Source: Candidatus Gottesmanbacteria bacterium (GTDB lineage: Bacteria > Patescibacteriota > Microgenomatia > UBA10105 > UBA927). From it: a stretch of 64,000 nucleotides of DNA. The stretch lies in contig CAVQFA010000003.1 of assembly GCA_963711735.1 (NCBI GenBank), positions 284,367-348,366 on the forward strand, written 5' to 3'. This document shows positions 18,351 through 58,265 of the stretch, piece by piece (position 1 is the first letter of the stretch; every line of letters begins with the position of its first letter). The notes under the pieces were generated by a model. It was not told where the DNA came from, searched no databases, and worked only from the letters and a program-made list of their open reading frames with translations. Made by a program: the position numbers and the translations under genes.

Positions 18351-20927
18351 TTATGGTGTTAGTGTCGGTGACAGGGCGGGGGTGGGGATGGGGGCACAGC
18401 GTCCACCGAGAGGTTCGGTGCCTTTAACAAAGTATTCTACCCTTCCATAATAACAGGGGAGTGAAATTACATTTTCCGGTTTTGGTGCGACTTCATCAGG
18501 TTTGTTCTTCAGAAGTGCAGTCATAATATCGTGCCATATGGGAGATGCTCCCGTGATGCCGGAGGTAAGAACCGGATCCATCGGAGAGTTATTATTATTT
18601 CCGACCCATACCGTTGTCACATACGACGGAGTGTACCCGATAGTCCAGTTGTCGCGTTTTTCGTTTGTCGTTCCGGTTTTAACGGAAACTGTTTTGCCGG
18701 GTATGACTAAGCTAGAATTGGGTCCGAAAGCAGAGGAGCGCGCCTGGTTGTCAGCAAGGATGTTTCCCATGATCCATGCAACTTCCGGAGTTGTGGCTGG
18801 TATCCCGGTATCGGGCGCATTTTTTTCTACAATATGTCCTGCATAGTCAGTGATCTCAAGAATAGGAAGGAGATCTACATGCCTGCCGGTGTTAGCGAGT
18901 GTTCCGTACGCCTCAGCCATTTCAAGCATCGTGACATCACCACCGCCGAGTGTGAGTGAGAGCCCGTACCGTGATGTGTCCTGCCACGAGTCGATACCCA
19001 TGAGCTGTGCCTTCTGCATCATCGTGGGGAGTCCGATTTTCGCAAGTACCTTCACTGCCGGTACATTGTAGGAGTTAGCAAGTGCCATCCGAAGAGGAGT
19101 AAGTCCATGGAACTTGCCGTCGTAATTAACTGGTGCGTATGAGGGGCTCCCGTATACACGATAGATAACGGGTGAATCATCGATAATCGATGCTGCGGTA
19201 TACCCGTTTTCGAGAGCCGCAGTATAGGTTATAATTTTTATGGATGATCCGGGTTGCCTGAGGGAAGTAGTGACATTGACATTCCCATCGCTTGCCGTAT
19301 CAAAATAATTTTTGCTTCCGACCATTGCGAGTATTTCACCGGTTTTCGGATTTGTGACAAGCGCCGCACCGTTGCCGACCCGAAGAGGGGCAAGTGCAGT
19401 AATCTGGTTTTCCACTATATTTTGTGCCGTTTCCTGTACGGATATATCCAGAGATGTTATAACACGAAGCCCTCCGCGCTCTACGAGACGTGTTCCGTAC
19501 CGTTTCTCCAGTATATTTTTTATGTACATGACAAAGTGCGGTGCGCGCATCTGAACTGCGGGGGATGCATACACGAGCGGTTCGTTTGCAGCTTCATCTG
19601 CCTGTTGTTTGGTTATGTATCCGTCCTCTGACATCCGGCGTAATACTTCGCGCTGTCGCATAACGGCTTTTTCGGGATGAGCACCAAAGGGGGAATATTC
19701 TGTGGGTGCCGCAGGGAGACCGGTGAGAAGCGCTGCCTCTGCAAGAGTCAAATCCTTCACGGATTTATTGAAGTATGTCCGGCTTGCTGATTCGATACCC
19801 CACGCGGTTCCTCCGTACGGAACCTGATTGAGATACATTTCCAATATTTGATTTTTCGTATACATCTGTTCAGCCCAGAATGAAAGAAGAATTTCCTTAA
19901 ATTTCCGTACAATTGTTACCTCCGGAGTCAGAAGAACGGATTTGATAAGCTGCTGGGAAATTGTCGATCCGCCCTGCAGACGATGATTCACGAACGTTTC
20001 TATGAAAGCACGCGTTATCGCACGTATTGAAAATCCCTGATGCTGGTAAAATTCACGGTCCTCAATGGCGATGGTTGCCTCGCGGACCATGGGAGGAATC
20101 TGGGCAAGAGTGAGCGGCGTCCTGTTTTGGTCAGCGTATATTTCGTACAAAAGTATTCCGTTCCGGTCAAATATTTTTGTCGTTACCTCGAGATCCCTGT
20201 GTGTAAGGAGATTTGGATTGGGAAGGGATACAAGCCACTGATAGCTTACAAACGGAATAACTATAAAAACCAGGGTGACGAAAATGCCACTCAGAAACCA
20301 CCTGATGCTGTTGATAATAAGTGATGGTTCGTATTTTCTCTGCCTGGGGGTTTTGGGTGTTATAGTTTTCGTGCGTTTCAGATTTTTTATAAATGACAGG
20401 AAGGGAATATGTAATTTTTTCGGCGGATATATTTCACCCTTCAGGGATATGTTTTTTTTCTTACTTACGTACGTTGTCTGCGTCTTCAAAAAAGATGAGG
20501 AAGGTTCTTTATGTTCGGGAAATCCGATGGAAGCAGCTTTATTTGCAAGTGACGAGAACCACGCCGTGAAGCTCCGGACAATGGTATTTTGAGCAGAATA
20601 GGCTGTACTTTTTGTTGCTGCCCGCAACCGGTCTGATGACCGTTTGGATATGTAATAAAATGCACCTGTCCGTTCACGGATTCTGATTCCGGCAAGCGCG
20701 TAATAGTACTTTAAAAATGCGACAAGCAAAAGAAACTGTTTCCGAACATAGGTGTAGAGGAAAGTATCGACTGAATTTATTATATTATAGGTTATTTTAA
20801 ATGCGAAAAGTAGGAATTTAAAAAATGATCGGACCAGATCTCCGATTTTTTTTAATAATAAGAAAATACCCGTGATTAATTGAAGAACGATATCCATATG
20901 CGCAATACAAAAAAACAGGAAGTCCAC
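18351..20927 (-). CDS. class A penicillin-binding protein (transglycosylase + transpeptidase) with ~200 aa N-terminal extension
   Basis: GT51 motifs IEDREFYQHQG and RQPGSSIK (SxxK) are present; the remainder of the transpeptidase (TP) domain follows. Confidence 0.85.
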   Translation of the reverse strand: MDFLFFCIAHMDIVLQLITGIFLLLKKIGDLVRSFFKFLLFAFKITYNIINSVDTFLYTYVRKQFLLLVAFLKYYYALAGIRIRERTGAFYYISKRSSDRLRAATKSTAYSAQNTIVRSFTAWFSSLANKAASIGFPEHKEPSSSFLKTQTTYVSKKKNISLKGEIYPPKKLHIPFLSFIKNLKRTKTITPKTPRQRKYEPSLIINSIRWFLSGIFVTLVFIVIPFVSYQWLVSLPNPNLLTHRDLEVTTKIFDRNGILLYEIYADQNRTPLTLAQIPPMVREATIAIEDREFYQHQGFSIRAITRAFIETFVNHRLQGGSTISQQLIKSVLLTPEVTIVRKFKEILLSFWAEQMYTKNQILEMYLNQVPYGGTAWGIESASRTYFNKSVKDLTLAEAALLTGLPAAPTEYSPFGAHPEKAVMRQREVLRRMSEDGYITKQQADEAANEPLVYASPAVQMRAPHFVMYIKNILEKRYGTRLVERGGLRVITSLDISVQETAQNIVENQITALAPLRVGNGAALVTNPKTGEILAMVGSKNYFDTASDGNVNVTTSLRQPGSSIKIITYTAALENGYTAASIIDDSPVIYRVYGSPSYAPVNYDGKFHGLTPLRMALANSYNVPAVKVLAKIGLPTMMQKAQLMGIDSWQDTSRYGLSLTLGGGDVTMLEMAEAYGTLANTGRHVDLLPILEITDYAGHIVEKNAPDTGIPATTPEVAWIMGNILADNQARSSAFGPNSSLVIPGKTVSVKTGTTNEKRDNWTIGYTPSYVTTVWVGNNNNSPMDPVLTSGITGASPIWHDIMTALLKNKPDEVAPKPENVISLPCYYGRVEYFVKGTEPLGGRCAPIPTPALSPTLTP

Positions 20928-20995
20928 TGAACAGCCTGTGAACTAGTGTTATATCATATTCTATGGGACTATTCAAGAAGAATAATTTCGGAAAA

Positions 20996-23260
20996 TTACC
21001 GTATGATTACGGGTTTTTTGGCATCATGATTACAATCTAAACACCACATGGATAACTCATCGCGAAGTACATCATGATCCTGAATTTCAACATTTTCAGG
21101 AGCTGTTGTCTGTGTGGCAAGATCACCGGTTGTTTTATCTATAGGGACACTCATACGTAACTGTTCACGGGCTGTGGGAACTGTGCCTTTTATGAAGTAC
21201 TCATACCGTGTTGAACATCCCTTATCTCCTTCGCTATTAGGAGGAAGCAAACCGGTCGTGGTGCACACTTCGGCACCGACAATACCTTCGGGTTGTTTTG
21301 GCCAGATATCAGGTTGATTTTCAAGTACCCGCTTCATGAGCTTATTCCATATCGGAGCTGCTCCCGTTACTCCGGAAACAAGCGCCTGGTTCATGCGGGT
21401 GTTATTGTTGTTGCCTACCCAAACTGCGATGAGAAATTGCGGTGTATACCCGATCGTCCAATTATCCCGGTGTTCATCCGTTGTTCCGGTTTTAACCGAT
21501 ACCGCGTGTCCCGGGATAACAAGCGCTGAGTTTGTCCCGAACATGGCAGCGCGGGCGTTGTTATCCAGAAGTATGTGTGAAATGAGATACGCGGTTTCCG
21601 CGGAAAGAACCCTCGGTCCGGAGATAAGAATCTGTGAAGGTACGGACTTTTTCAGATTAGGATCTTTCTGTTCAAAGAGTATCTTTCCCTGGTTGTCCGT
21701 TACCTTTGTGATAGCTATCAGGTCTTTCCGTACTCCTGAATTGGCAAATACGGAAAATGCTGTTGCCATATCCGTCATCCTTACCTCTCCGCCGCCGAGA
21801 GTCAGAGAGAGTCCGTAGTTTTTGGGATCTTTGATAGTAGAAAGTCCGAACGCACTTGCCGATGCGACAAACCCTTCGACAGAATTTATCTTTAACATTT
21901 TTACCGCCGGAATGTTAAAAGAATTACCGAGTGCAAACCGAAGCTGCTGGGGTCCGTGAAATTGGAAATCATAGTTGTTCGGACAGTAGAGGGGTTGGTT
22001 GATGGATGCAAAACATGTCGGTACGTCCAGAAACATTGTTGCGGGTGTAACCCTTTTTTGCTCAATACCGATGCCGTAATTTATGGGTTTTATGGAAGAA
22101 CCGGGTTGCCTGAGAGCTGTGGTGACATTGAAACTGCCGGAGGGTGTGGCGAAATAATCCACACTTCCGACCATGGCGAGTATTTCACCAGTTGCCGGTT
22201 TGGTTATAAGTGCAGCGCCGTTTGATACGTCATAATGCTCTAAATCTTTAATTTCCGCCGCCACTGTTGCCTGTGCATAATCCTGGAGTGTAATATCCAG
22301 AGTTGTTGTGACATTGAGTCCGCCGCGTGCCACGAGTGTCTCGCCGAACTCTTCAACAAGTTTTTCTTTTACGTACATGATAAAATGCGGTGCCCTTATG
22401 TTTGTCTGTTTGGCATATACGAGTGCTTCCTTTTTTGCCTTTTCAGCTTCAGCTTGTGTTATATATCCGTCCTCGACCATACGACGTAAAACTTCCACTT
22501 GACGGTTTTTTGCCAATTCCGGATGGGCACCGAACGGGGAGTAATAAGTAGGAGCCTGAGGAAGACCGGCAAGAAGAGATGCTTCAGCAAGTGTCAGATC
22601 TTTAGCACGCTTGGCGAAATACTTTTCCGCTGCTGTTTCTATACCCCACGCAGTGCCGCCGTACGGAACCTGGTTGAGGTATAACTCAAGTATTTTATCC
22701 TTGGGATAGAGAAGTTCCACCCAAAAAGAAAGGACAATTTCACGGATTTTACGGACGACACTCCTTTGCGGTGTAAGGAGTGCGGTTTTTACTAACTGCT
22801 GTGTGATAGTTGACCCTCCCTGCAGACGTTTTCCCGTGATGGTTGCAACAACCGCCCGGAGCATTCCTCCGATAGGACTTACACCACCGTGCTTATAAAA
22901 ATTTTTATCTTCTATGGATATGGTAGCTTCGCGGACATAAAGCGGAATTTCTGAAAGCGTAACGGCTGTTCTGTTTTCCTCTACAAATATATCGTGGAGA
23001 AGTATACCGTTTCTGTCATATATTTTTGTAGCAAGAGGAACAGAATATGTTTCAAGTCCTTTTGGTGAAGGAAGGTCTTTGAAAATGAGAAGATATGACC
23101 CTATGATAAGTGACAGAGGCAGAAGCCAAAATGCCCATTTGATACGTTGACCGTGTACCCGGGGAATTGGTAACGCAAAACGGGAAACGAAGGATTTGAC
23201 ACCCTTCAGGGAGATTTTATGAAATCCTTTTTCAATCCTTTGTCGAAATGTAGACGTCAT
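20996..23260 (-). CDS. class A penicillin-binding protein (paralog)
   Basis: IEDKNFYKHGG, RQPGSSIKP and KTGTT are present, and the protein is collinear with the upstream PBP. Confidence 0.9.
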   Translation of the reverse strand: MTSTFRQRIEKGFHKISLKGVKSFVSRFALPIPRVHGQRIKWAFWLLPLSLIIGSYLLIFKDLPSPKGLETYSVPLATKIYDRNGILLHDIFVEENRTAVTLSEIPLYVREATISIEDKNFYKHGGVSPIGGMLRAVVATITGKRLQGGSTITQQLVKTALLTPQRSVVRKIREIVLSFWVELLYPKDKILELYLNQVPYGGTAWGIETAAEKYFAKRAKDLTLAEASLLAGLPQAPTYYSPFGAHPELAKNRQVEVLRRMVEDGYITQAEAEKAKKEALVYAKQTNIRAPHFIMYVKEKLVEEFGETLVARGGLNVTTTLDITLQDYAQATVAAEIKDLEHYDVSNGAALITKPATGEILAMVGSVDYFATPSGSFNVTTALRQPGSSIKPINYGIGIEQKRVTPATMFLDVPTCFASINQPLYCPNNYDFQFHGPQQLRFALGNSFNIPAVKMLKINSVEGFVASASAFGLSTIKDPKNYGLSLTLGGGEVRMTDMATAFSVFANSGVRKDLIAITKVTDNQGKILFEQKDPNLKKSVPSQILISGPRVLSAETAYLISHILLDNNARAAMFGTNSALVIPGHAVSVKTGTTDEHRDNWTIGYTPQFLIAVWVGNNNNTRMNQALVSGVTGAAPIWNKLMKRVLENQPDIWPKQPEGIVGAEVCTTTGLLPPNSEGDKGCSTRYEYFIKGTVPTAREQLRMSVPIDKTTGDLATQTTAPENVEIQDHDVLRDELSMWCLDCNHDAKKPVIIR

Positions 23261-35078: not shown

Positions 35079-35405
35079 TCAATCTATAGAGCGTTTGGAT
35101 AAATATGCATCAGATGTTACAACGAGGATGAGTAGTAAAATACTGTAGAGTGCTTCCCGCAGATAGAGAAACCGTAAGACAAGATAAATGATTCCTCCGC
35201 ATGTCATAAGAACCGCCCTTAGTACGTTGTTTGTGAGGTACATGACGGAGGAAAAGATGGCACATCCGATGAGAGTAATACAAATACCAATGTATAAATA
35301 TAGTTGCGGCGGATACGTATTGACAAACCAGCTGATAATACAAGCGAAAATAATTGCAGTAAACAACCATATTATATTATGTCGGGAAGTATTGAATCTC
35401 GTCAT
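35079..35405 (-). CDS. small membrane protein, hypothetical
   Basis: 3 TM. An internal Met start is chosen to avoid overlap with rmuC. Confidence 0.3.
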   Translation of the reverse strand: MTRFNTSRHNIIWLFTAIIFACIISWFVNTYPPQLYLYIGICITLIGCAIFSSVMYLTNNVLRAVLMTCGGIIYLVLRFLYLREALYSILLLILVVTSDAYLSKRSID

Positions 35406-35442
35406 ACGTTTTTCATTGTAGTCGTACGAAGCGGATGCTACA

Positions 35443-36483
35443 ATGATGCCTATTATGACTGTGGAATCTGTAAGTCTTCTTTTGGCAATTGCTCTGGGGT
35501 TTGGCATACTCTATTTCTTCATCAGAAATGAACTGAATAAGGTTACAAAAGAGCCGGAAAATAAAGCTCTTTTGGAATGGTTGAGAAGTATGCAGACGTC
35601 GATAGATAAAACCAATAAAGACCTCAATGAGGCAATGCGGGGAACGACAAGCGATGTCGCGCGTGCCATACAGTCAAATACGAAACAACTCAACGACAGG
35701 CTTGATAAGGCGGCAGAAGTAATCGGAGGGCTTCAGAAAAATCTGGGAGAGATGAGTGAGGTTGGCAGGGGAATTAAATCTCTGCAGGAATTTCTCCAAT
35801 CGCCGAAACTTCGGGGAAATATCGGTGAGCAGGTGCTTTCGGATATGATCGGTCAGACCTTTCCCAAAAATTCTTTTTATCTACAATACGCTTTTCATAG
35901 CGGAGCAAAGGTTGATGCGGTTCTCAAAACTGATGCCGGACTACTCTGTATTGATTCGAAATTTCCGATGGAGAACTTTACTGCCATGCACAAAGGGGAG
36001 ACGGAAAGTTTGAGAAATGCAGCAAAAAAAGACCTGATGAACGATGTAAAAAAACATATAGGAGATATAAGCAAAAAATATATCTTACCCGAGGAGGGAA
36101 CGATGGATTTCGCCCTCATGTATGTACCGTCTGAAGCAGTCTATTACGAAGTGGTGAACAATACCGATCTTATGGATTTTGCCCGGAAATCGAGAGTTTA
36201 TCCTGTATCTCCCAACACGCTCTATGCGCACCTTCAGGTATTATTATTATCTTTTCAGGGTAAAGAGCTCGAAAACCGTTCGCGGGAAGTGTTCCGGCTT
36301 CTTCGGGCTATCCAAAAAGATTACGGGAAGACGGAAGAGTCATTATCGGTTCTCGGCAAACATATCAATAACGCATATAACTCTATGAGTACCGTGACCG
36401 GCGCATTTACCCTTCTTGGGCAGAAATTATCAAGAACCCAGACGTTAAAAGATACCGGGGATAGTAAGGAAATCGAGAGTTAA
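35443..36483 (+). CDS. rmuC: DNA recombination protein RmuC
   Basis: N-terminal TM, coiled coil, and C-terminal nuclease-like domain with [18 protein letters not shown] (the RmuC D...D/E-x-K core). Confidence 0.7.
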
Positions 36484-38385: not shown

Positions 38386-40842
38386 ATGAAGCTGCCATCG
38401 ATTGTTACAGAATTATTTCAGAAAAAGAAGAAAGAACAGAAATTGTACCTCAGTCTTGTTCTTGAATCCGATCATGTGGTCGGGGCTGTTTTCCAAATTC
38501 TTGATGACGGAACACCTGAGATAGAGCACGCTGTCGCAAAGCGCATAGCATCCGATTCATGGGAGGACAGAATAATCGGTGCTGATGCTGTCATCTCTGC
38601 TTTGGAGAAGAAATTAGAAACGACTGATTTTCATGAGGTCATTTTTGGGCTCCCTGCATCATATTTGTCACCAAACGGCTCAATAACCACGTCTGTGAGG
38701 CCTCACCTGAAAGATGTAGCGACAAAACTCACACTCAATCCAATTGGTTTTGTCCCTATACATCAGGCACTATTGTATAAATTGAAAACAGAAGAAGGCA
38801 TACCTCCTTCAATAATTTTATTGGAAGTAACCACGAGGACTGTTACGCTCTCATTATTTAAAGTCGGAATGCTTACAGGCCAATCGATCATACCCAATAA
38901 CAATTCGGTAGTTCAGGAAATAGAAAATGCTCTTCGAAGTTTTCCGAACGCCGAAGTACTCCCGTCCAGGATTTTATTATCCGGCATAGATGACGGAAAA
39001 TTAGAGAATTTGAAGAAACGCATCACGGAACATCCGTGGACGATACGCGCAAATTTTCTGCATTTTCCCCGTATAGAAACACTACCCCTTGATGTTTCTG
39101 TAGAGAGTGTCTCTTTAGCAGGCGCGAGTGAAATCGGCGGTACTGAAGGTTTTCACTCCGACAATCCGGAACAGGAAATATCGGATGGTACGGGTGATTC
39201 TCCGGAATCCCAACACCCATCTGTCGATACGTACTCTCCTGAAAATTTTACAGACGATGGAAGTGTTGAAGGGAGACCGGATGATCTGAAAGAATACTCT
39301 ACAGGTATAAAACAACCCTCCGAACCACAAGAGAACGATGAGGTAATAGGCGAAACTTCAAAAGAAATAAAGCCAAAAGATACAAGTAATATTGGTAAAT
39401 ATGCTGATGATACAACCCTAACCAATCAGGAAGACATAACAGAGAAGTCGAACGTCACATTCGTGAACCCTGAGGATATCGGTTTCACCAAAGACACGGA
39501 CGTTTTATCAGAAAAATCTGAACTCACACGTGCACAAGCTCTGAAAACTCGTAAACCTGAAAGTACCGATATGTCAGTCGAAGTCAAAGGTAAGCACAGC
39601 ACGCCACCTGTATATTCTCTGGTACTCGTGAAAGGAAAAGAAATTTTCTTGAAAACAAGAAGCATTATTGCAGGGATAGTTCACAAAATACCAATCAGCA
39701 GGAAATTGTTGTTGATCGGAGGTATTGTTGTAACGGTTGCAATCATTCTTTTCGGACTTTTCTATTGGATTATGCGTGAATTTCCAAAGGCAGAGGTTAC
39801 GCTTACGGTTGTCCCGGAAATACTTCAGGCTAAAGAGACTTTAGAATTCAGTACAGGCATAACGACACCTGACAAAGAAAAAAAGATATTTCCTGCTGAG
39901 AAAATTGAGACACAAATTTCTCTGGATAAAAATATCTCAGTTACAGGAAAGAAAAAAGTCGGTGATCCTGCAACCGGCAGCGTGGTTATATATAACAAAG
40001 CAACTTCATCGAGAAAATTATCAAAAGGCACCATCCTGACGAGTGACAAATTATTATTTACATTAGATGCCGATATACAGGTTGCATCTGCATCGGAAAG
40101 TATCGGATCCATAACATTTGGTAAAACAAACGCCCAGGTTACTGCCTCTGCAATCGGAACATCCAGTAACCTGCCTGCAAATACGGAATTTGTTTTTAAG
40201 GATATTTCTTCAAGTATACTTATTGCCCGCAACGATAGCGCATTTACCGGTGGAACAAGCAGGGATGTTACCGTTGTGACAAGAGCTGACTATGATTCCT
40301 TAGTGAAACTTGCTCTTGAAGATGTTAGAAAAAATGCGCAACAGGAGTTATCAGGGAGTATGAGCGGAACGATGAAGTTAATCAGTAATACGGTAGCGAC
40401 GACCGTTAAAGATAAGTCTTTTTCTAACGAATTGGACGAAGAGGCAAAACAGCTATCTGGAACGGTGAATATAGGTATTACCGGTTTAGCATACAACGAA
40501 GATGCATTAAAACGTTTTATTGAAACATTGGAAATGCAGAATGTCCCGTCCGGATACCGGATAATGACTGATAAATCCACCGCGACCATAGACTCTGTCA
40601 AAATCGGGAAAGACGGCACCGTCACAGCAAGTATTTCGTACAAAGGGACCGCAATCCCTTCGTTTACGGAAACGGATTTGTCAAAATTGATAGCCGGAAA
40701 GAGAATATCCGATGCACGGACAGATCTCACAAAGATACGCGGAATAAAAGACGTTTCATTTAAAGTAACACAAACTTTACGGCCGGATTATCTCCCTTTG
40801 AAAAGCGATCGTGTTGTGATAACGGTTCTTTTAAATGAATAA
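38386..40842 (+). CDS. 818-aa bitopic protein with N-terminal actin-like (FtsA/PilM-like, degenerate) domain, acidic linker, TM, large extracellular domain
   Basis: YLSLVLESDHVVGAVF and ILLEVTTRTVTLSLFKVG resemble actin-fold phosphate-1/2 strands. TM segment is LLLIGGIVVTVAIILFGLFYWIM. Confidence 0.4.
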   Translation: MKLPSIVTELFQKKKKEQKLYLSLVLESDHVVGAVFQILDDGTPEIEHAVAKRIASDSWEDRIIGADAVISALEKKLETTDFHEVIFGLPASYLSPNGSITTSVRPHLKDVATKLTLNPIGFVPIHQALLYKLKTEEGIPPSIILLEVTTRTVTLSLFKVGMLTGQSIIPNNNSVVQEIENALRSFPNAEVLPSRILLSGIDDGKLENLKKRITEHPWTIRANFLHFPRIETLPLDVSVESVSLAGASEIGGTEGFHSDNPEQEISDGTGDSPESQHPSVDTYSPENFTDDGSVEGRPDDLKEYSTGIKQPSEPQENDEVIGETSKEIKPKDTSNIGKYADDTTLTNQEDITEKSNVTFVNPEDIGFTKDTDVLSEKSELTRAQALKTRKPESTDMSVEVKGKHSTPPVYSLVLVKGKEIFLKTRSIIAGIVHKIPISRKLLLIGGIVVTVAIILFGLFYWIMREFPKAEVTLTVVPEILQAKETLEFSTGITTPDKEKKIFPAEKIETQISLDKNISVTGKKKVGDPATGSVVIYNKATSSRKLSKGTILTSDKLLFTLDADIQVASASESIGSITFGKTNAQVTASAIGTSSNLPANTEFVFKDISSSILIARNDSAFTGGTSRDVTVVTRADYDSLVKLALEDVRKNAQQELSGSMSGTMKLISNTVATTVKDKSFSNELDEEAKQLSGTVNIGITGLAYNEDALKRFIETLEMQNVPSGYRIMTDKSTATIDSVKIGKDGTVTASISYKGTAIPSFTETDLSKLIAGKRISDARTDLTKIRGIKDVSFKVTQTLRPDYLPLKSDRVVITVLLNE

Positions 40843-52297: not shown

Positions 52298-52424
52298 GAT
52301 TCTGCCATAATTACTGTAAACGTGTGTCAAAACAATTAGAGCTTCCCATTCAGTCAATAAAAAGAACAGCAGTTGTTGTTCTGGATCTGTTCTTATTGGT
52401 CTTGTCAAAATTAGCCAAAATGTA

Positions 52425-53738
52425 TTAACGATACAATTTCCAATCTCCGAAGACTTCATTTTTATAGACAGTTATACCATCGATACGAATCATTTTTCCC
52501 GGAGGTACATTTCGGATGAGACGTACAACAATTTGATTCTCGAGTAACGCTCGGGAAACACCTTTCATGTCCGGGTATAGGGATAGTCCAATGTACGATC
52601 TGTCCGGAATGCCGGATATAAAAGTACGGTATTTTAGTTGTCCGAGACGTATGAGCCGTTGGGATCTTTTCTTTGCGTTATATACTGATAAGGGCGCATA
52701 CTGTTTTTCCATAGACGAAGCTCTTGTATTTTTCCGGTTGCTGTAACGGAAGATATGAAACTTAGAGATAGGGTGAGTTTGCAGAAATGTGAAGGTTTCC
52801 TCAAAATTTTCTTCGGATTCACCCGGAAAACCCACAATAATATCAGTTCCTATAAGCGCATCGGGATTTACGGATGCAATCTGATTTATCCGCTCAGAAA
52901 TATATTTTTTTGTATATCCGCGGTTCATACGCAGTAAAATTTCGTCTGATGCAGATTGGATGGGAATGTGGAAAAAATGAACAAAACGATTATCATCAGA
53001 GTGATTTTTATACCACACAATAAATTCATCCGTGATACTCCACGGATGTAAAGAACCAAGACTCAGCCTGGAAACAGAGGTATTTTCCAATACGGCATCA
53101 AGAAGAATAGGCAATGATTCACCATGACCCCTCCCGATATATTCGGTATTTATTCCGGTAATGATAACTTCCTTTATTTTTGATTTATATGCACGTATGC
53201 ATTCAATAACTTCTTTTGATGATTTTGTTGTGGGTTTTCCACGAAGGTAAGGAACTATACAGTAAGAACAAAATCGTTCACATCCGTCCTGAACTTTCAG
53301 TATGAGTCTGCCGGAATCTATAAATTTATCACCTGCATTTTTTTGTTGTGTCGGTTTTATTTTTCCTGTATCTGAATGCTGTTCTGATGCTGTCGGCGGA
53401 ATGAGAAACGAGCGCAGGAGATACGGTATTTGCTGTTTGTCCGAATTGGAAACTAGAAGATCTGTCTCTCTCATACGGTAACGCTCAGTTTTCCATAATG
53501 TTGCCAGACATCCGGTAACGAGAAGTATGGTGTCAGGAAATTTTCTTCGGATACGACGTATGAACTGACGCGCCTCCCGTTCAGCTTTTCCCGTCACTGC
53601 ACACGTATTTATAATATACACGTCCGGTTTGTCATCCGAATAAATAAACCCAAATGCACGAAGCTTCCTGTCGATTGCTATTTTTTCAGCCTCGTTGACT
53701 CTGCACCCAAACGTAAAACTGGCAAATGAACGTTTCAC
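52425..53738 (-). CDS. radical-SAM methylthiotransferase, MiaB/RimO/MtaB family (possibly RimO, the S12 Asp-methylthiotransferase)
   Basis: MTTase N-domain cysteines (FGCRVN, NTCAV, TGC), radical-SAM CERFCSYCIVP, and a TRAM-like C-terminus. Confidence 0.8.
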   Translation of the reverse strand: MKRSFASFTFGCRVNEAEKIAIDRKLRAFGFIYSDDKPDVYIINTCAVTGKAEREARQFIRRIRRKFPDTILLVTGCLATLWKTERYRMRETDLLVSNSDKQQIPYLLRSFLIPPTASEQHSDTGKIKPTQQKNAGDKFIDSGRLILKVQDGCERFCSYCIVPYLRGKPTTKSSKEVIECIRAYKSKIKEVIITGINTEYIGRGHGESLPILLDAVLENTSVSRLSLGSLHPWSITDEFIVWYKNHSDDNRFVHFFHIPIQSASDEILLRMNRGYTKKYISERINQIASVNPDALIGTDIIVGFPGESEENFEETFTFLQTHPISKFHIFRYSNRKNTRASSMEKQYAPLSVYNAKKRSQRLIRLGQLKYRTFISGIPDRSYIGLSLYPDMKGVSRALLENQIVVRLIRNVPPGKMIRIDGITVYKNEVFGDWKLYR

Positions 53739-53780
53739 AACACGTATTATACGAAAAATGAACTCTCAGCATGTAATGAA

Positions 53781-53804
53781 AACTATGATGAAAGTTTCAT
53801 AGTT
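53781..53804. promoter_or_regulatory. perfect 8-bp inverted repeat AACTATGA-N8-TCATAGTT in the divergent promoter region
   Basis: Lies between the divergently transcribed methylthiotransferase and Cas4-like genes. Confidence 0.3.
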
Positions 53805-53917
53805 ATTTAGGTTCGTTCTCAGTGTGGTATGATTACGGGTATAACGGAGTATATATTTTCATTTTTATAAAGAAATGTTTTCTAAATAATTAATAATTTT
53901 CTTAGTAAATTACATCT

Positions 53918-54739
53918 ATGAAAGATAAATATTCTGCCGTGTGGGTATCTCACTCATCTATTTCCGATTATCTCAAATGTCCGAGAGCATATTACCTCGC
54001 GAATATGTACAGGGATCCGAAAACAAATCATAAAATTACCCTGATGCAACCGCCGCTGGCACTCGGGCAGGCGGTGCACGGCACAATAGAGATCATTTCC
54101 ACATTACCTCTTGAAAATCGGTTTACCGTACCTCTTGAAGAACACTTTAATCAGCTATGGGATACCGTTTCGGGCAAAAGAGGAGGATTTCGTGAAAAAG
54201 ATGAGGAAAAGAAGTTAAAAGCACGGGGACTTGCTATGATAAAAAGATTATCCGAACACCCGGGACCGTTACAGCAAAAAGCAATAAAAATTCGTCAGGA
54301 GCTCCCGTATTATTGGCTGTCAGAAGAAGACAATATCATTTTATGCGGAAAAATCGATTGGCTGGAATATCGGCAGGATTCGGATTCGGTACGTATCATT
54401 GATTTTAAAACCGGAAAATTTGATGAAGATCCGGATTCACTTCAGTTACCTATCTATTATCTCGTTACAAAACACGCTCAGACAAAAAAAATTTCCGGTC
54501 TCGCGTACTGGTATTTGGACAGGGATGATGAACCGATTGATATGGTTCTTCCTGATGAAAATGAGTCAGCAAGATTAATTACGGAAATCGCGAAAAAAAT
54601 TGCCCTTGCACGGAAACTCGGACGGTTTGTATGCCGCGAGGGCGGGTGCAGAACATGCAAACCTTTCGAAGCGATTCTTGCAGGAAAAGGAGAGTATGTA
54701 GGGGTGAATGATTTTAATGCTGATGTATATATTTTATAG
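53918..54739 (+). CDS. Cas4-like / RecB-family PD-(D/E)XK nuclease with 4-Cys Fe-S cluster signature (standalone, no CRISPR)
   Basis: N-terminal Cys (YLKCPRAYY), motif II-III (IDWLEY, IIDFKTGK), QxxxY (QLPIYYLV) and C-terminal CREGGCRTC. Confidence 0.65.
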   Translation: MKDKYSAVWVSHSSISDYLKCPRAYYLANMYRDPKTNHKITLMQPPLALGQAVHGTIEIISTLPLENRFTVPLEEHFNQLWDTVSGKRGGFREKDEEKKLKARGLAMIKRLSEHPGPLQQKAIKIRQELPYYWLSEEDNIILCGKIDWLEYRQDSDSVRIIDFKTGKFDEDPDSLQLPIYYLVTKHAQTKKISGLAYWYLDRDDEPIDMVLPDENESARLITEIAKKIALARKLGRFVCREGGCRTCKPFEAILAGKGEYVGVNDFNADVYIL

Positions 54740-54756
54740 ATACAATAGGGATTTTT

Positions 54757-55917
54757 ATGAATACAATTACGTGCAACAAATGCGGTAATATTATTGAAGT
54801 TACGGATGCTCTGGAAGAACAGGCTCGGATTTCCATAGAAAAAAAATTACGTGAAGAATCAAAAAAAGAAATAGAGCATATCCAAAAGGATGCTGAGGAA
54901 AACGCAGGGAAAAGGTTAAAGGAGCATTTTGAATTTGAAACGAAACAGCGGCAAAGTGAAATGGAAGAGATGCGTAAGTATTCGAAAAATCTTCAGGAAC
55001 AACTCCTAACGCTTACCAAAAAACTTCAGGAAGAAAAAAGCAAATCACAGGATTTGGAAATAAAGATGCGCAAAGAGCTTTTAGAAGCTCAGGATAAAAT
55101 ATTTACCCAGGCAAAAACCAAAGCAGACGAAGAGCATAAACTGACTATTTCTGAGCTCACCAAACAGATTCAGGATTTTAAAAAAGCGAATGAGGAACTG
55201 AATAAAAAATTGGATCAGCGCTCTCAACAGCTTCAGGGGGAAGTACAGGAACTTGATTTGGAATCAACGCTTCGGTCTTCGTTTCCGTTTGACGGAATCG
55301 AACCGATTGGTAAAGGCGTAAAAGGTGCAGATGTACGCCAGATAGTGCGGACACAGATAGGAAATGTTTGCGGAGTAATACTGTGGGAATCCAAACAGAC
55401 GAAAACCTGGTCAAACGAATGGTTGGGGAAACTCAAAAATGACCTGCGGGCTGAGAAAGCCAATATTCCCATTATTATATCGACGCAACTTCCGGAGGAA
55501 GCACAATCAGGTTTTGGGATGAAAGATGGTGTAGTAATAGTAGGCCCTGCATTTATTATTCCGATTGCAGAAATGATCCGGCAGCGTCTTATAGATATTG
55601 CCAGGGAGCGTTATGTACTCGCAAACAGAGGCGGAAAAGCAGAGGATCTGTATACCTATATAACCAGTCACGAATTTCGACAGCAAATAGAAGTACTCAA
55701 AGAAACGTTTGATGATATGCAGCATCAGATTATACGTGAAAGAGTTGCATATGAGAAAAGTTGGAAAACCAGAGAAGCGCAAATCACAAAATTATTTTCA
55801 AGTACTGCGCGAATGCTCGGTAGCATGCGGGGAATAATCGGACAATCATTACCGAGCGTTAAAGGATTTGAACTTGAGGGAGAACACAATGAAAACGGAA
55901 CTATGGAAGATGTTTAA
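54757..55917 (+). CDS. DUF2130-like protein: N-terminal zinc-ribbon, ~150-aa coiled coil, C-terminal PD-(D/E)XK-like domain
   Basis: ITCNKCGNI at the N-terminus. A heptad-rich, E/K/Q-rich segment follows (aa 25-170). C-terminal GADVRQIV...VILWESKQT supplies a D...ExK. Confidence 0.5.
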   Translation: MNTITCNKCGNIIEVTDALEEQARISIEKKLREESKKEIEHIQKDAEENAGKRLKEHFEFETKQRQSEMEEMRKYSKNLQEQLLTLTKKLQEEKSKSQDLEIKMRKELLEAQDKIFTQAKTKADEEHKLTISELTKQIQDFKKANEELNKKLDQRSQQLQGEVQELDLESTLRSSFPFDGIEPIGKGVKGADVRQIVRTQIGNVCGVILWESKQTKTWSNEWLGKLKNDLRAEKANIPIIISTQLPEEAQSGFGMKDGVVIVGPAFIIPIAEMIRQRLIDIARERYVLANRGGKAEDLYTYITSHEFRQQIEVLKETFDDMQHQIIRERVAYEKSWKTREAQITKLFSSTARMLGSMRGIIGQSLPSVKGFELEGEHNENGTMEDV

Positions 55918-55989
55918 CGGGATCAATCATAATTACATATTCAGTTGAAGAAATTGTTCGGATTTTAATACACTTCTTTTTTGTAATGT

Positions 55990-57126
55990 ATGCACGATCG
56001 GTATGCAAAGTACTTGCTATACAGTAGTATATGTGCCTTCGGAGTATTGAGTATTATTCTCGGAGTGTTTTTAGTAAAAAAACAAGATAAAACTCCTTTA
56101 TTTCCGTATTCATACCAGAGTATTCTTCCGCATATCCGTTTTGGATTTTTAAAAATGAAAAATGATCAGTACGTACCGGAAAAACTGTCGCTTATCAGAA
56201 TTTTTCGTGAAGACCACAGATGGATCGCCACACTTTCTGCAGACCGTATTCGTACTGTCATTGTCACAGGTGATGTTATACCGGCCCGATCCGTTAATTT
56301 TCTGTCTGTCAGTCGGAATGATTTTTTATGGCCATTTGCAAAAACGTATACCACACTTGGGAATGCAGATATTACATTTATAAATTTGGAAACACCTCTT
56401 TTTCAAAAGTGTCCGCTGACAAATGAAGGAATGATTTTTTGCGGCAGTGACAAACACGTTCAGGGCCTAATTGCTGCAGGTGTAGACGTTGCAAGTCTTG
56501 CAAATAACCATATCGGTAATTACGGAACAGATGGAATCAATGAAACGGTAAAGACTCTCATGGGAGGAAATATTACCAGTGTCGGACTTGGAAATCTCTA
56601 TGTGCGTGATATTCGGGGAGTACGATTCGGTTTTTTGGGTTTTAATGATATCGGTGTCCCTGCTTTACCGATTGCCGTGGCGGACCCTGTCACTATAGTT
56701 CGTCAGATTCGTGATGCAAAAAACCAATCAGATATTATTATCGTTGCGTTTCACTGGGGAGAAGAATATACGCGCATGCCTACCGTTCGGCAACGAGAGC
56801 TTGCACACGCTGCTATTAATGCGGGAGCAGACGTTGTTATTGGTAATCATCCGCACTGGATTCAACCACCTGAGCTATATCAGGATAAGTTCATTATGTA
56901 TGCGCACGGTAATTTTATTTTTGATCAGATGTGGTCGTATGAAACGAGAGTGGGATTGATCGGGACATATTCATTTTTTGATACATCACTCATTGACGTG
57001 TCATTTGATCCCGTATTGATTGAAAATTACGGCCAGCCCGGAATATTGAAAGGTATGGAAAGACAGAAAATTTTACGTATAATAGAAGACGCGAGTGTTG
57101 ATAATGGCATAAGTAAGGTACAATGA
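55990..57126 (+). CDS. CapA/PgsA-family metallophosphoesterase (poly-gamma-glutamate capsule synthesis-like), membrane anchored
   Basis: NLETPL, ANNH, FHWGEEY and GNHPHW motifs. Confidence 0.7.
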   Translation: MHDRYAKYLLYSSICAFGVLSIILGVFLVKKQDKTPLFPYSYQSILPHIRFGFLKMKNDQYVPEKLSLIRIFREDHRWIATLSADRIRTVIVTGDVIPARSVNFLSVSRNDFLWPFAKTYTTLGNADITFINLETPLFQKCPLTNEGMIFCGSDKHVQGLIAAGVDVASLANNHIGNYGTDGINETVKTLMGGNITSVGLGNLYVRDIRGVRFGFLGFNDIGVPALPIAVADPVTIVRQIRDAKNQSDIIIVAFHWGEEYTRMPTVRQRELAHAAINAGADVVIGNHPHWIQPPELYQDKFIMYAHGNFIFDQMWSYETRVGLIGTYSFFDTSLIDVSFDPVLIENYGQPGILKGMERQKILRIIEDASVDNGISKVQ

Positions 57127-57755
57127 TAGAAAGACATATGAATTCTGATCAGACATTGGCAAAAGCCCAGATTGGATATTATCAGGAACTTATTTTCCTA
57201 TCTCCGAAGGCGGAAGCGGCAACCGGACAAATTACTAAATCAGCTGTAACTGATACAGCACCGGTTCCGGTACTTGCTCCGTATATGATGTATCTTCCGT
57301 TTGTTGTATTTTTCCTTCTCTTTATCGGTGTGTTTGCCATGCAGATTGTGAATAAAGTGAAAAGCGCAAGACAAATTATGATGGCATTTCTCTTTGCACT
57401 TGTTACAGCCGGAACTCCGTTTATTGTAACAATGCTGAATATGGGTATTGTGTTTCAGGCCAAAGCCGGTCCTGACGAGATACCGCGGAATATTCGTATC
57501 ATCTCCCAGTCGCCCGAATCGTTGCGCGTCATCTGGAGTACGGATGCTAAAAAAATCGGATCAGTGAAAGTGAAGGATATGTCGCATACACCATATACTG
57601 AACGTATTATTATCGGAAACTTCGGCGAACAAGTACAGGATCATCTGGTTAATATAGACGGTGTTCCGCGTGGAGCATCGTATGAAATGGAAATTTTTTC
57701 CGGAACCACGTGGTATGATAACCAGGGCAAACCTATCCAAATACAGTTAAAGTAG
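57123..57755 (+). CDS. membrane protein with C-terminal FN3/Ig-like domain, hypothetical
   Basis: Two TM segments followed by LRVIWSTDAKKIG...YEMEIFSG. The ATG overlaps the capA stop. Confidence 0.35.
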   Translation: MIERHMNSDQTLAKAQIGYYQELIFLSPKAEAATGQITKSAVTDTAPVPVLAPYMMYLPFVVFFLLFIGVFAMQIVNKVKSARQIMMAFLFALVTAGTPFIVTMLNMGIVFQAKAGPDEIPRNIRIISQSPESLRVIWSTDAKKIGSVKVKDMSHTPYTERIIIGNFGEQVQDHLVNIDGVPRGASYEMEIFSGTTWYDNQGKPIQIQLK

Positions 57756-57784
57756 TGAAGCATTTCTTCCGTCACAAACAAGTC

Positions 57785-58096
57785 ATGAATGTACAGGACC
57801 GTATATACCGTGTTGTGAAACAGATTCCAAAGGGTTATGTGCTCAGATATAAAGACGTAGCAACCTTATCCGGTTGCCCAAGCCCACGAACTGTTGGCAG
57901 TATTCTTCATCGAAATCCTTCTCCGGGTACCATTCCATGTCATAGGGTGGTGCATGCAAGCGGAGAGTGTGCCGTAGGGTACGCGTTTGGCGGAAAAAGC
58001 GGACAGGAGGCGAAATTACGAACAGAGGGAGTTTCTTTCCGTCACGGAAAAGTGATTATGGGTGAATCCTTATGGAAGAGTGTTGTGTATGAATAA
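57785..58096 (+). CDS. MGMT-like alkyltransferase domain protein (O6-alkylguanine-DNA alkyltransferase C-terminal domain only)
   Basis: YKDVATLSG...HRNPSPGTIPCHRVV contains the active-site PCHRV. It may instead start at the GTG at 57755. Confidence 0.65.
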   Translation: MNVQDRIYRVVKQIPKGYVLRYKDVATLSGCPSPRTVGSILHRNPSPGTIPCHRVVHASGECAVGYAFGGKSGQEAKLRTEGVSFRHGKVIMGESLWKSVVYE

Positions 58097-58165
58097 TTCG
58101 TACGTTTTATTACTGGACACCCGCAGGTAAATTTTATACAATTGGATAAAGAGTTATGAAGCATT

Positions 58166-58194
58166 AGCTGCTTCGGAAACGGAGCAGTTTTTTG
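58166..58194 (+). terminator. rho-independent terminator ending the inserted operon
   Basis: CTGCTTC-GGAAAC-GGAGCAG stem-loop followed by TTTTTT. Confidence 0.55.
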
Positions 58195-58265
58195 TTGTTG
58201 CATAAAATTGTGCATGATTGATCGGGATTACTTTGAAATCATTTCGCAATGTATGCAAAGAAACT

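Follow-up and report, generated by a model that had tools for sequence, protein, structure and literature searches.

Iron-sulfur (Fe-S) nucleases of the Cas4/RecB family, which include Cas4, AddB, AdnA/AdnB and Dna2, share a catalytic D...DxK and QxxxY arrangement, one N-terminal and three C-terminal cysteines, the PF12705 domain and a common fold. In the zinc hook of Rad50, two CxxC motifs share one zinc ion. ACE1, a standalone Cas4-family protein, is a single-stranded DNA (ssDNA) endonuclease (PMC12094033), and RmuC domains degrade DNA in vitro, as reported for the Shield system (PMC10270631). The DUF2130 proteins were placed in the PD-(D/E)XK superfamily with their function listed as unknown (Steczkiewicz et al., 2012; PMC3424549). 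A standalone Cas4-like gene (G1) is followed directly by a DUF2130 gene (G2) in a 64-kb stretch of DNA (hereafter "the window"; contig CAVQFA010000003.1) from a Candidatus Gottesmanbacteria bacterium, a Microgenomates-type member of the Candidate Phyla Radiation (CPR; Patescibacteria) with a tiny genome; the names of homologues likewise point to the CPR, near Gottesmanbacteria. We judge it somewhat better than even (a probability of about 0.55) that the two are housekeeping nucleases, transcribed together, that serve DNA repair or recombination. A preliminary description of the sequence had proposed a tightly coupled module in an inserted island, serving either as a defence system or as a DNA end-processing system; the latter is the most plausible direction.

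The two nucleases and their described relatives

Both open reading frames (ORFs) are present on the plus strand as first described (Table 1). G1 matches PF12705 (PDDEXK_1) at 84.8 bits (E 1.2e-23, cut-off 22) over residues 10-247, which correspond to positions 2-240 of the 247 in the profile, and is a member of that family. The complete RecB/Cas4 signature attributed to it was borne out: C21, D147, DxK, QxxxY and Cx4Cx2C are all there, and all are invariant in the 26 homologues aligned. By the cysteine pattern of the Cas4/AddB family, G1 would be expected to bind an Fe-S cluster. Its match to Cas4 itself is marginal (PF01930, 23.0 bits, cut-off 22.7), and the cas4 equivalog level of TIGR00372 is not reached (34.2 bits against a cut-off of 65). 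The AlphaFold2 (AF2) model has a mean predicted local distance difference test score (pLDDT) of 84.8 and a predicted template modelling score (pTM) of 0.80; its best solved-structure match by Foldseek is ACE1 (TM score ~0.6, E 1e-7, 14-16% identity), followed by AdnA/AdnB, Dna2, AddB nuclease domains, RecE and Cas4. Alignment and model agree on a conserved extra beta-hairpin tail at the C-terminus.

G1 shares with the Fe-S nucleases named above the motifs, the cysteines, the domain and the fold. Unlike AddB, AdnAB and RecB, whose nuclease domain is fused to a UvrD-like helicase or ATPase or encoded beside one, it is a single domain of 273 aa that lacks a helicase domain, and no helicase gene was found among its neighbours in the window or in relatives. 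Unlike CRISPR Cas4 it has neither cas1/cas2 nor an array nearby, scores below the TIGR00372 cut-off, and shows Cx4Cx2C spacing and the hairpin tail. ACE1, of the APACE1 system, is likewise standalone, of the Cas4 family and ~270 aa long, but it forms a heterodimer with an adjacent long-A prokaryotic Argonaute (pAgo) in cyanobacteria, and the resemblance is at the level of the fold only; no Argonaute gene was found close to G1 in the window, where its neighbours are the MiaB-like and DUF2130 genes, or in the relatives compared.

Two other identities for G1 were considered. Many of its homologues in the Joint Genome Institute (JGI) data carry the name "AddB fragment", a label that we reject since the protein is full length, single-domain and conserved from end to end. 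In PHROGs, G1 matches generic phage "exonuclease" families at modest scores; a phage-exonuclease origin was nevertheless rejected, because tblastn and pattern scans found no relatives of G1 in the phage and viral collections searched. Our literature search turned up nothing on Cas4-like nucleases in Patescibacteria.

G2 matches PF09903 over its full length (191 bits, cut-off 26.7, E 3e-56), contains the D...ExK core and is thus a DUF2130 protein; it is of the short CPR type (PF09903/COG4487, ~345-400 aa) and otherwise ordinary at the family level. Its AF2 model (pLDDT 86.6) consists of a beta-hairpin (residues 3-14), an uninterrupted helix of 137 residues (15-151), an alpha/beta core (159-262) and terminal helices (264-361). 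Among 120 homologues, C6xxC9, D192 and E211-x-K213 vary little or not at all. Across phyla, D192 and E211-x-K213 are invariant in 85/85 homologues and a CPxC knuckle stands just before the long helix in every one of these; the D...ExK arrangement claimed for the second gene therefore holds, and the model shows it within a PD-(D/E)XK core. G1 and G2 both encode complete PD-(D/E)XK nucleases, which are probably active.

The preliminary description had also given G2 a Zn-ribbon knuckle and a coiled coil of ~150 residues. A knuckle and a 137-residue helix are there, but the knuckle is a single one. The next conserved cysteine, C205, lies inside the nuclease core and is not invariant; a complete zinc ribbon, with two knuckles and four ligands per chain, was rejected, since C6xxC9 was the only knuckle found. 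As a zinc site needs more than two cysteines, an inter-subunit, hook-like site is possible in DUF2130. The helix shows a modest heptad signal (period ~3.65, z 2.5 relative to shuffled sequences), which makes a coiled coil plausible rather than demonstrated. In PDB, PADLOC and NCBIfam the long helix drew coiled-coil noise only, as did a PDB sequence search with the DUF2130 profile (SNAP-25 and kinesin, for example), and in PHROGs G2 matched only a tape-measure coiled coil.

The likeness to RmuC noted earlier is real at the level of layout: in RmuC and ShdA of Shield, as in G2, an N-terminal element for anchoring or oligomerisation is combined with a long stretch of helix and a PD-(D/E)XK core. 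Escherichia coli RmuC and ShdA begin with a membrane helix, whereas G2 has the CxxC knuckle at this place, its N-terminus MNTITCNKCGNIIEV being modelled as a beta-hairpin and not as a hydrophobic helix. PF02646 does not match G2 at E <= 0.1, which places it outside RmuC proper, and neither G1 nor G2 matches ShdA in PADLOC. A true RmuC gene is present in the window at 35443-36483 (PF02646, E 1.6e-51), as the preliminary description had reported, so G2 and RmuC are not redundant orthologues; the nuclease core of this RmuC aligns with that of G2 (GxxGE helix; D; [DE]xK) at an hhalign E of 0.009 and a probability of 4%, over the core only. The start of the RmuC ORF overlaps a 142-aa minus-strand ORF (35079-35507) by 65 nt, and its real start is therefore probably further downstream. 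The zinc hook of Rad50/SbcC resembles G2 in having a single CxxC joined to a long helix, with a putatively shared zinc. It differs in that G2 lacks an ABC ATPase head, carries its CxxC at the N-terminus rather than at a coiled-coil apex and has the nuclease in the same chain; Rad50 reaches only E 0.034 against G2, far below the cut-off and over the helix alone, and no ATPase domain was found in G2.

The spacing of 17 nt between the genes and the AGGGA ribosome-binding site ahead of the second were confirmed in the sequence. A promoter/terminator scan found no terminator between them, and the two ORFs overlap by 4 nt in six of the loci compared (L012, L088, L093, L094, L100, L167; comparison loci are given by such numbers throughout). 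G1 and G2 are probably co-transcribed. Their presumed promoter would lie in the intergenic region upstream of G1 (53739..53917), where the promoter scan gave no signal above chance.

Conservation, linkage and chromosomal setting

Divergence from the window was compared in L093, L094, L137, L163, L164 and L167. In the same related genomes, identity to the window proteins is 72-82% for RpoC (90% in one 50-residue fragment), 69-78% for RpsG, 62-67% for G1 and 45-56% for MltG, CapA and the MiaB-like protein; for DUF2130 it is mostly 40-49%, the two closest relatives reaching 63% and 69%. L137, which is more distant, gives 58% for G1, 62% for RpsL, 60% for the elongation factor EF-G and 50% for RpsG. 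The pace at which G1 diverges is close to that of ribosomal protein S7 and, in L137, to that of S12 and EF-G. For a nuclease of unknown function, such slow divergence is unusual. The G1 family forms 6441 clusters at 90% identity, yet has 372 matches among 1.84 billion representatives at 50% identity: it is a large but compact, very slowly evolving CPR subfamily. Slow divergence, compactness and absence from the phage and viral sets are together traits of a core housekeeping gene and not of a defence gene in an arms race.

The pair stands where the classical rpsL-rpsG-fusA-tuf operon is split, at window positions 52298-58217, by 5.9 kb with six genes: the MiaB-like gene on the opposite strand, G1, G2, a CapA gene, a gene for a small membrane protein and one for a short protein of the O6-methylguanine-DNA methyltransferase (MGMT) type. 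The order rpsG-[MiaB-like]-G1-DUF2130-...-CapA-fusA is shared by L093, L094, L167 and L085, the last a 3.3-kb contig in which only the upstream part is visible, and variants occur in L163 and L164. The MiaB-like gene holds the same position in L085, L093, L094, L115, L164 and L167, and CapA is found again in L161, L163, L164 and L167. Relatives keep rpsG and fusA apart and vary what lies between (EamA, TspO, a LigT-like protein, HhH-GPD, an apurinic/apyrimidinic (AP) endonuclease, bactofilin, flavodoxin). A second arrangement, MltG-G1-DUF2130-rpoB, was found in L012, L096, L099 and L100.

The proposed inserted island could not be upheld. The same slot is filled in L093, L094, L163, L164 and L167; domain searches found no integrase or transposase among the six slot genes, no tRNA or Rfam element was found at the locus, and a scan for flanking repeats returned short chance repeats only; neither it nor a tandem-repeat scan gave an island boundary. 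The GC content of the slot (0.38-0.41) falls within the range of the window (0.37-0.48), with no compositional shift. The behaviour of the rpsG-fusA region is that of a conserved slot through which genes come and go rather than that of an island, and within it the pair is a lineage-restricted, probable operon.

Linkage of the two genes was counted from both sides. Of 80 species-representative genome loci chosen for DUF2130 from many phyla, four have a G1 orthologue no more than 6 kb away: adjacent in L012 and ~1.7 kb away in three Collierbacteria-type loci. From the G1 side, 11 of 80 metagenome loci have DUF2130 within 6 kb, adjacent in eight, and 10 of the 11 are among the closest relatives (at least 62% identity). 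DUF2130 is still the commonest neighbour family of G1, every other family being found in at most five loci. Two different flanks (rpsG...fusA and MltG-pair-rpoB) retain the pair as a unit, and L125 has it adjacent in reversed order. EamA (L163) or TspO (L164) can be inserted between the genes, two or three genes separate them in L089-L092 and the Collierbacteria loci, and five unrelated genes, over a distance of 6.4 kb, separate the closest DUF2130 relative (69% identity) from the G1 upstream of it. L162 has DUF2130 but no G1; L166, L091 and L095 have G1 but no DUF2130. A search with the concatenated proteins gave no fusion among the 120 best matches listed (longest 490 aa, mostly DUF2130 proteins), which is a weak negative. 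Homologues of the two genes are thus co-localised at other loci too, but "tightly coupled" goes too far for a linkage that is confined to one CPR sub-lineage and broken by EamA, TspO or 6.4 kb of genes. The 4-nt overlaps, the two flanking contexts and the one reversed order are some evidence for a loose functional coupling.

Searches for a defence context used PADLOC-DB 2.0, with a threshold of E <= 1e-10 for the neighbour scans. As the preliminary description had supposed, neither protein can be assigned to a named system: G1 has weak partial matches only, to the Cas4, Argonaute-associated Cas4-like (Aga-Cas4-like) and DruK models (best E 5.5e-9), and G2 has very weak matches to coiled-coil segments (best E 0.008). 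Among 101 proteins neighbouring CPR-type DUF2130, two PADLOC families were found, with one protein each, and the 125 neighbours of G1 gave a handful of single matches; 94 neighbours of proteobacterial-type DUF2130 gave 210 families. The array scan of the 64 kb was empty and no cas domain was found in the annotated ORFs of the window, again as first described; nor was a cas gene among the neighbour families clustered for 80 related loci.

The recurrent CPR neighbours of G1 or DUF2130 are genes of DNA metabolism: MGMT, HhH-GPD glycosylase, AP endonuclease, GIY-YIG, RNase HII and MazG. MGMT-type genes are neighbours in the window, L005, L117 and L153, HhH-GPD glycosylase genes in L089-L092, L162 and L166, and an AP endonuclease gene in L162. 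Small GIY-YIG proteins (~80-150 aa) adjoin G1 in L105, L107, L109, L110 and L137 and lie near DUF2130 in L006 and L026, and five loci have RNase HII after a CPR-type DUF2130. The short MGMT-type protein (101-113 aa) recurs within a few genes of G1 or DUF2130 at L005:7499-7807, L117:882-1187 and L153:6855-7160; these recurrences lie in unrelated contexts, and the PCHR motif is present in the window and L005 copies.

Table 1. Features of the G1-G2 locus, in window coordinates.
Feature	Position	Strand	Basis or remark
MiaB/RimO-like radical-SAM methylthiotransferase gene, upstream syntenic neighbour of G1	52425..53738	-	domain match
179-nt AT-rich intergenic region, presumed promoter of the pair	53739..53917		between divergent MiaB-like gene and G1
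G1, 273-aa standalone RecB/Cas4-family PD-(D/E)XK nuclease	53918..54739	+	PF12705, AF2 model
G1 Cys21, N-terminal ligand of predicted 4-Cys (Fe-S) cluster	53978..53980	+	invariant, 26 homologues
G1 catalytic motifs D147 (GKIDW), D162-F-K164 (IIDFKTGK), Q176xxxY180	54356..54457	+	all invariant, 26 homologues
G1 C239-x4-C244-x2-C247, three C-terminal cysteines of predicted cluster	54632..54658	+	invariant, 26 homologues
17-nt spacer ATACAATAGGGATTTTT with AGGGA Shine-Dalgarno-like element	54740..54756	+	between G1 and G2
G2, 386-aa DUF2130 protein	54757..55917	+	PF09903 E 3e-56, AF2 model
G2 N-terminal beta-hairpin with single C6-x2-C9 knuckle (putative half zinc site)	54763..54798	+	AF2 model, alignments; metal binding predicted
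Long helix of G2 (residues 15-151; 46% charged), perhaps a coiled coil	54799..55209	+	AF2 model
G2 PD-(D/E)XK nuclease core, residues 159-262; E162/E165/E169, D179, D192, E211-x-K213	55231..55542	+
G2 C-terminal helical region, residues 264-361; E328 and W336 invariant, R339 and E340 highly conserved	55546..55839	+
CapA/PGA_cap family gene, conserved resident of the rpsG-fusA slot	55990..57126	+	domain match
Short MGMT-type protein, PCHR motif	57755..58096	+	PF01035 E 1.3e-20

Elsewhere the window carries ordinary chromosomal genes: those for type IV pilus, penicillin-binding protein, aminoacyl-tRNA synthetase, rpoB/rpoC, rpsL/rpsG, fusA, tuf and RmuC. Two genes for class A penicillin-binding proteins (transglycosylase plus transpeptidase) stand in tandem on the minus strand at 18351-23260, which is ordinary but deserves mention in a reduced genome. 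The gene at 38386-40842, which immediately precedes a sortase gene, encodes an 818-aa protein that resembles Baseplate_J weakly (24 bits) and matches nothing in PHROGs.

Possible roles of the pair

In the housekeeping reading that we prefer, G1 and G2 would be vertically inherited chromosomal genes in a long-standing slot that also gathers other DNA-repair genes. G1 most likely threads and trims ssDNA ends or flaps, since its characterised structural relatives (Cas4, AddB, AdnAB, Dna2, ACE1) all do so; such trimming would amount to resection or flap processing in repair, recombination or replication restart. G2 would carry its PD-(D/E)XK endonuclease core on a long helical stalk, through which it may dimerise, and two of its CxxC knuckles may share one zinc ion; like RmuC, it would cut DNA structures or ends. 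First cutting and then trimming, they may work one after the other, a possibility made plausible by co-transcription. On this reading they are neither an obligate pair nor a mobile defence cassette.

An obligate two-nuclease machine for breaks and hairpins, with which the CPR would replace SbcCD plus AddAB/RecBCD in minimal form, would take the coupling further: a zinc-clasped DUF2130 dimer would cleave hairpins, cruciforms and blocked ends, as SbcCD/Mre11-Rad50 does, and the bound Fe-S nuclease would then resect. Translational coupling, as suggested by the 4-nt overlaps in several relatives, would fit such a machine, and so would the survival of the unit in two flanks and once reversed, the lead of DUF2130 among the neighbours of G1 (11/80 against at most five), the universal CxxC knuckle followed by a long helix, and the likeness of G1 to AdnAB and AddB nuclease domains. 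We nonetheless think it unlikely: 69 of the 80 G1 loci and 76 of the 80 DUF2130 loci show no linkage, genes for membrane proteins intervene in L163 and L164, in the closest relative 6.4 kb separates the two genes, G1 evolves at a very different rate from DUF2130 (~65% against ~45% identity), no fusion was found among the 120 best matches listed, and DUF2130 lacks an ATPase head. More doubtful still is a role in nucleic-acid turnover, be it the degradation of imported or damaged DNA for nucleotide salvage, on which CPR bacteria, with their reduced biosynthesis, may depend, or RNA processing tied to the adjacent transcription and translation genes. G1 does lie beside rpoB/rpoC/rpsL/rpsG/fusA in 11/75 loci, in three relative positions, and it is conserved almost as well as informational proteins, RpsG for one; in L166 a deoxynucleoside kinase and MazG are encoded near it, and the window has a pyrimidine-nucleoside phosphorylase gene along with those for the type IV pilus. 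These neighbour associations are sparse, however, no RNA-related domain is present, and the characterised close structural relatives all act on DNA ends in repair or immunity.

The least probable of these alternatives, and in our view a remote one, is the two-gene anti-phage or anti-plasmid system of the preliminary description. In such a system, invading DNA would be sensed or nicked by one of the nucleases and degraded by its partner. Both families are used in defence, the Cas4-family ACE1 with pAgo (PMC12094033) and an RmuC domain as the Shield effector (PMC10270631); G1 has its weak matches to Cas4 and Argonaute-associated Cas4-like models, and a proteobacterial DUF2130 clade lies in defence islands. 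Against this stand the lack of any specific PADLOC match, CPR-type neighbours of both genes that are almost free of defence genes, a conservation of G1 near that of ribosomal protein S7, its lack of homologues in the phage and viral collections searched, and a chromosomal position that relatives keep fixed, next to rpoBC and the str genes, with no hallmark of an island; pAgo, cas genes and a CRISPR array were not found in the window. The claim of a defence system is not supported.

Several observations weigh against a housekeeping role in repair. The neighbouring repair genes are few per family, and their counts ignore phylogeny. A divergent proteobacterial DUF2130 clade adjoins SIR2-HerA, PDC-S06 and type III methyltransferase genes; DUF2130 homologues with 29-41% identity are found on 45 plasmids, mostly of Bradyrhizobium and Mesorhizobium (NC_002679.1, for example), in seven Helicobacter heilmannii phage-type records (BK070121-BK070128) and on 33 IMG/VR viral contigs (L168-L200). 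The literature found on DUF2130 consists of catalogue mentions only, with the function given as unknown. Retention of the pair in two flanks, and once reversed, also hints at a coupling tighter than "loose".

DUF2130 in defence islands and in probable repair

The longer DUF2130 proteins of Proteobacteria and Nitrospirota (~415-440 aa) form a clade marked by the motif ...CPxC.TEIKLTESLAAPL... and by ...LTESLAAPL.... Members lie in defence islands, as at L032:670-7143 and also in L066, L074, L076, L063, L054, L056 and L013. DUF2130 and the start of SIR2 overlap by 4 nt in L032 and L066, where a type III methyltransferase gene comes after the SIR2-HerA system; in ~7 loci the gene next to the clade's DUF2130 encodes an AAA_13/PDC-S06 ATPase, and ImmA/IrrE-like regulators are also nearby. 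This suggests an undescribed defence-associated role for the clade. Given these islands and the plasmid, prophage-like and viral copies, the DUF2130 family is not purely housekeeping; the possible defence role of the proteobacterial clade does not transfer to the CPR pair.

A wider proposal, which we put forward as speculative and on balance improbable, would make DUF2130 an unrecognised class of stalked PD-(D/E)XK nuclease whose universal CPxC half-site clasps zinc between subunits. In Proteobacteria and Nitrospirota it would be a component of defence operons, overlapping SIR2-HerA and adjacent to AAA_13/PDC-S06 ATPases, and in the CPR it would have been domesticated and paired with an Fe-S Cas4-like nuclease, conserved almost to the degree of ribosomal proteins, as a minimal cut-and-resect machine for breaks and hairpins.

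The pair thus represents annotated but uncharacterised nuclease families in a conserved context, and not a new defence system. As G1 is nearly as slow to diverge as ribosomal protein S7, the standalone Cas4-like Fe-S nuclease of the CPR is probably central to the stripped-down DNA metabolism of these bacteria. DUF2130 is a broadly distributed RmuC-like nuclease family whose context splits sharply, between housekeeping in the CPR and defence islands in Proteobacteria, and this split offers a tractable case of one nuclease scaffold serving both repair and immunity.

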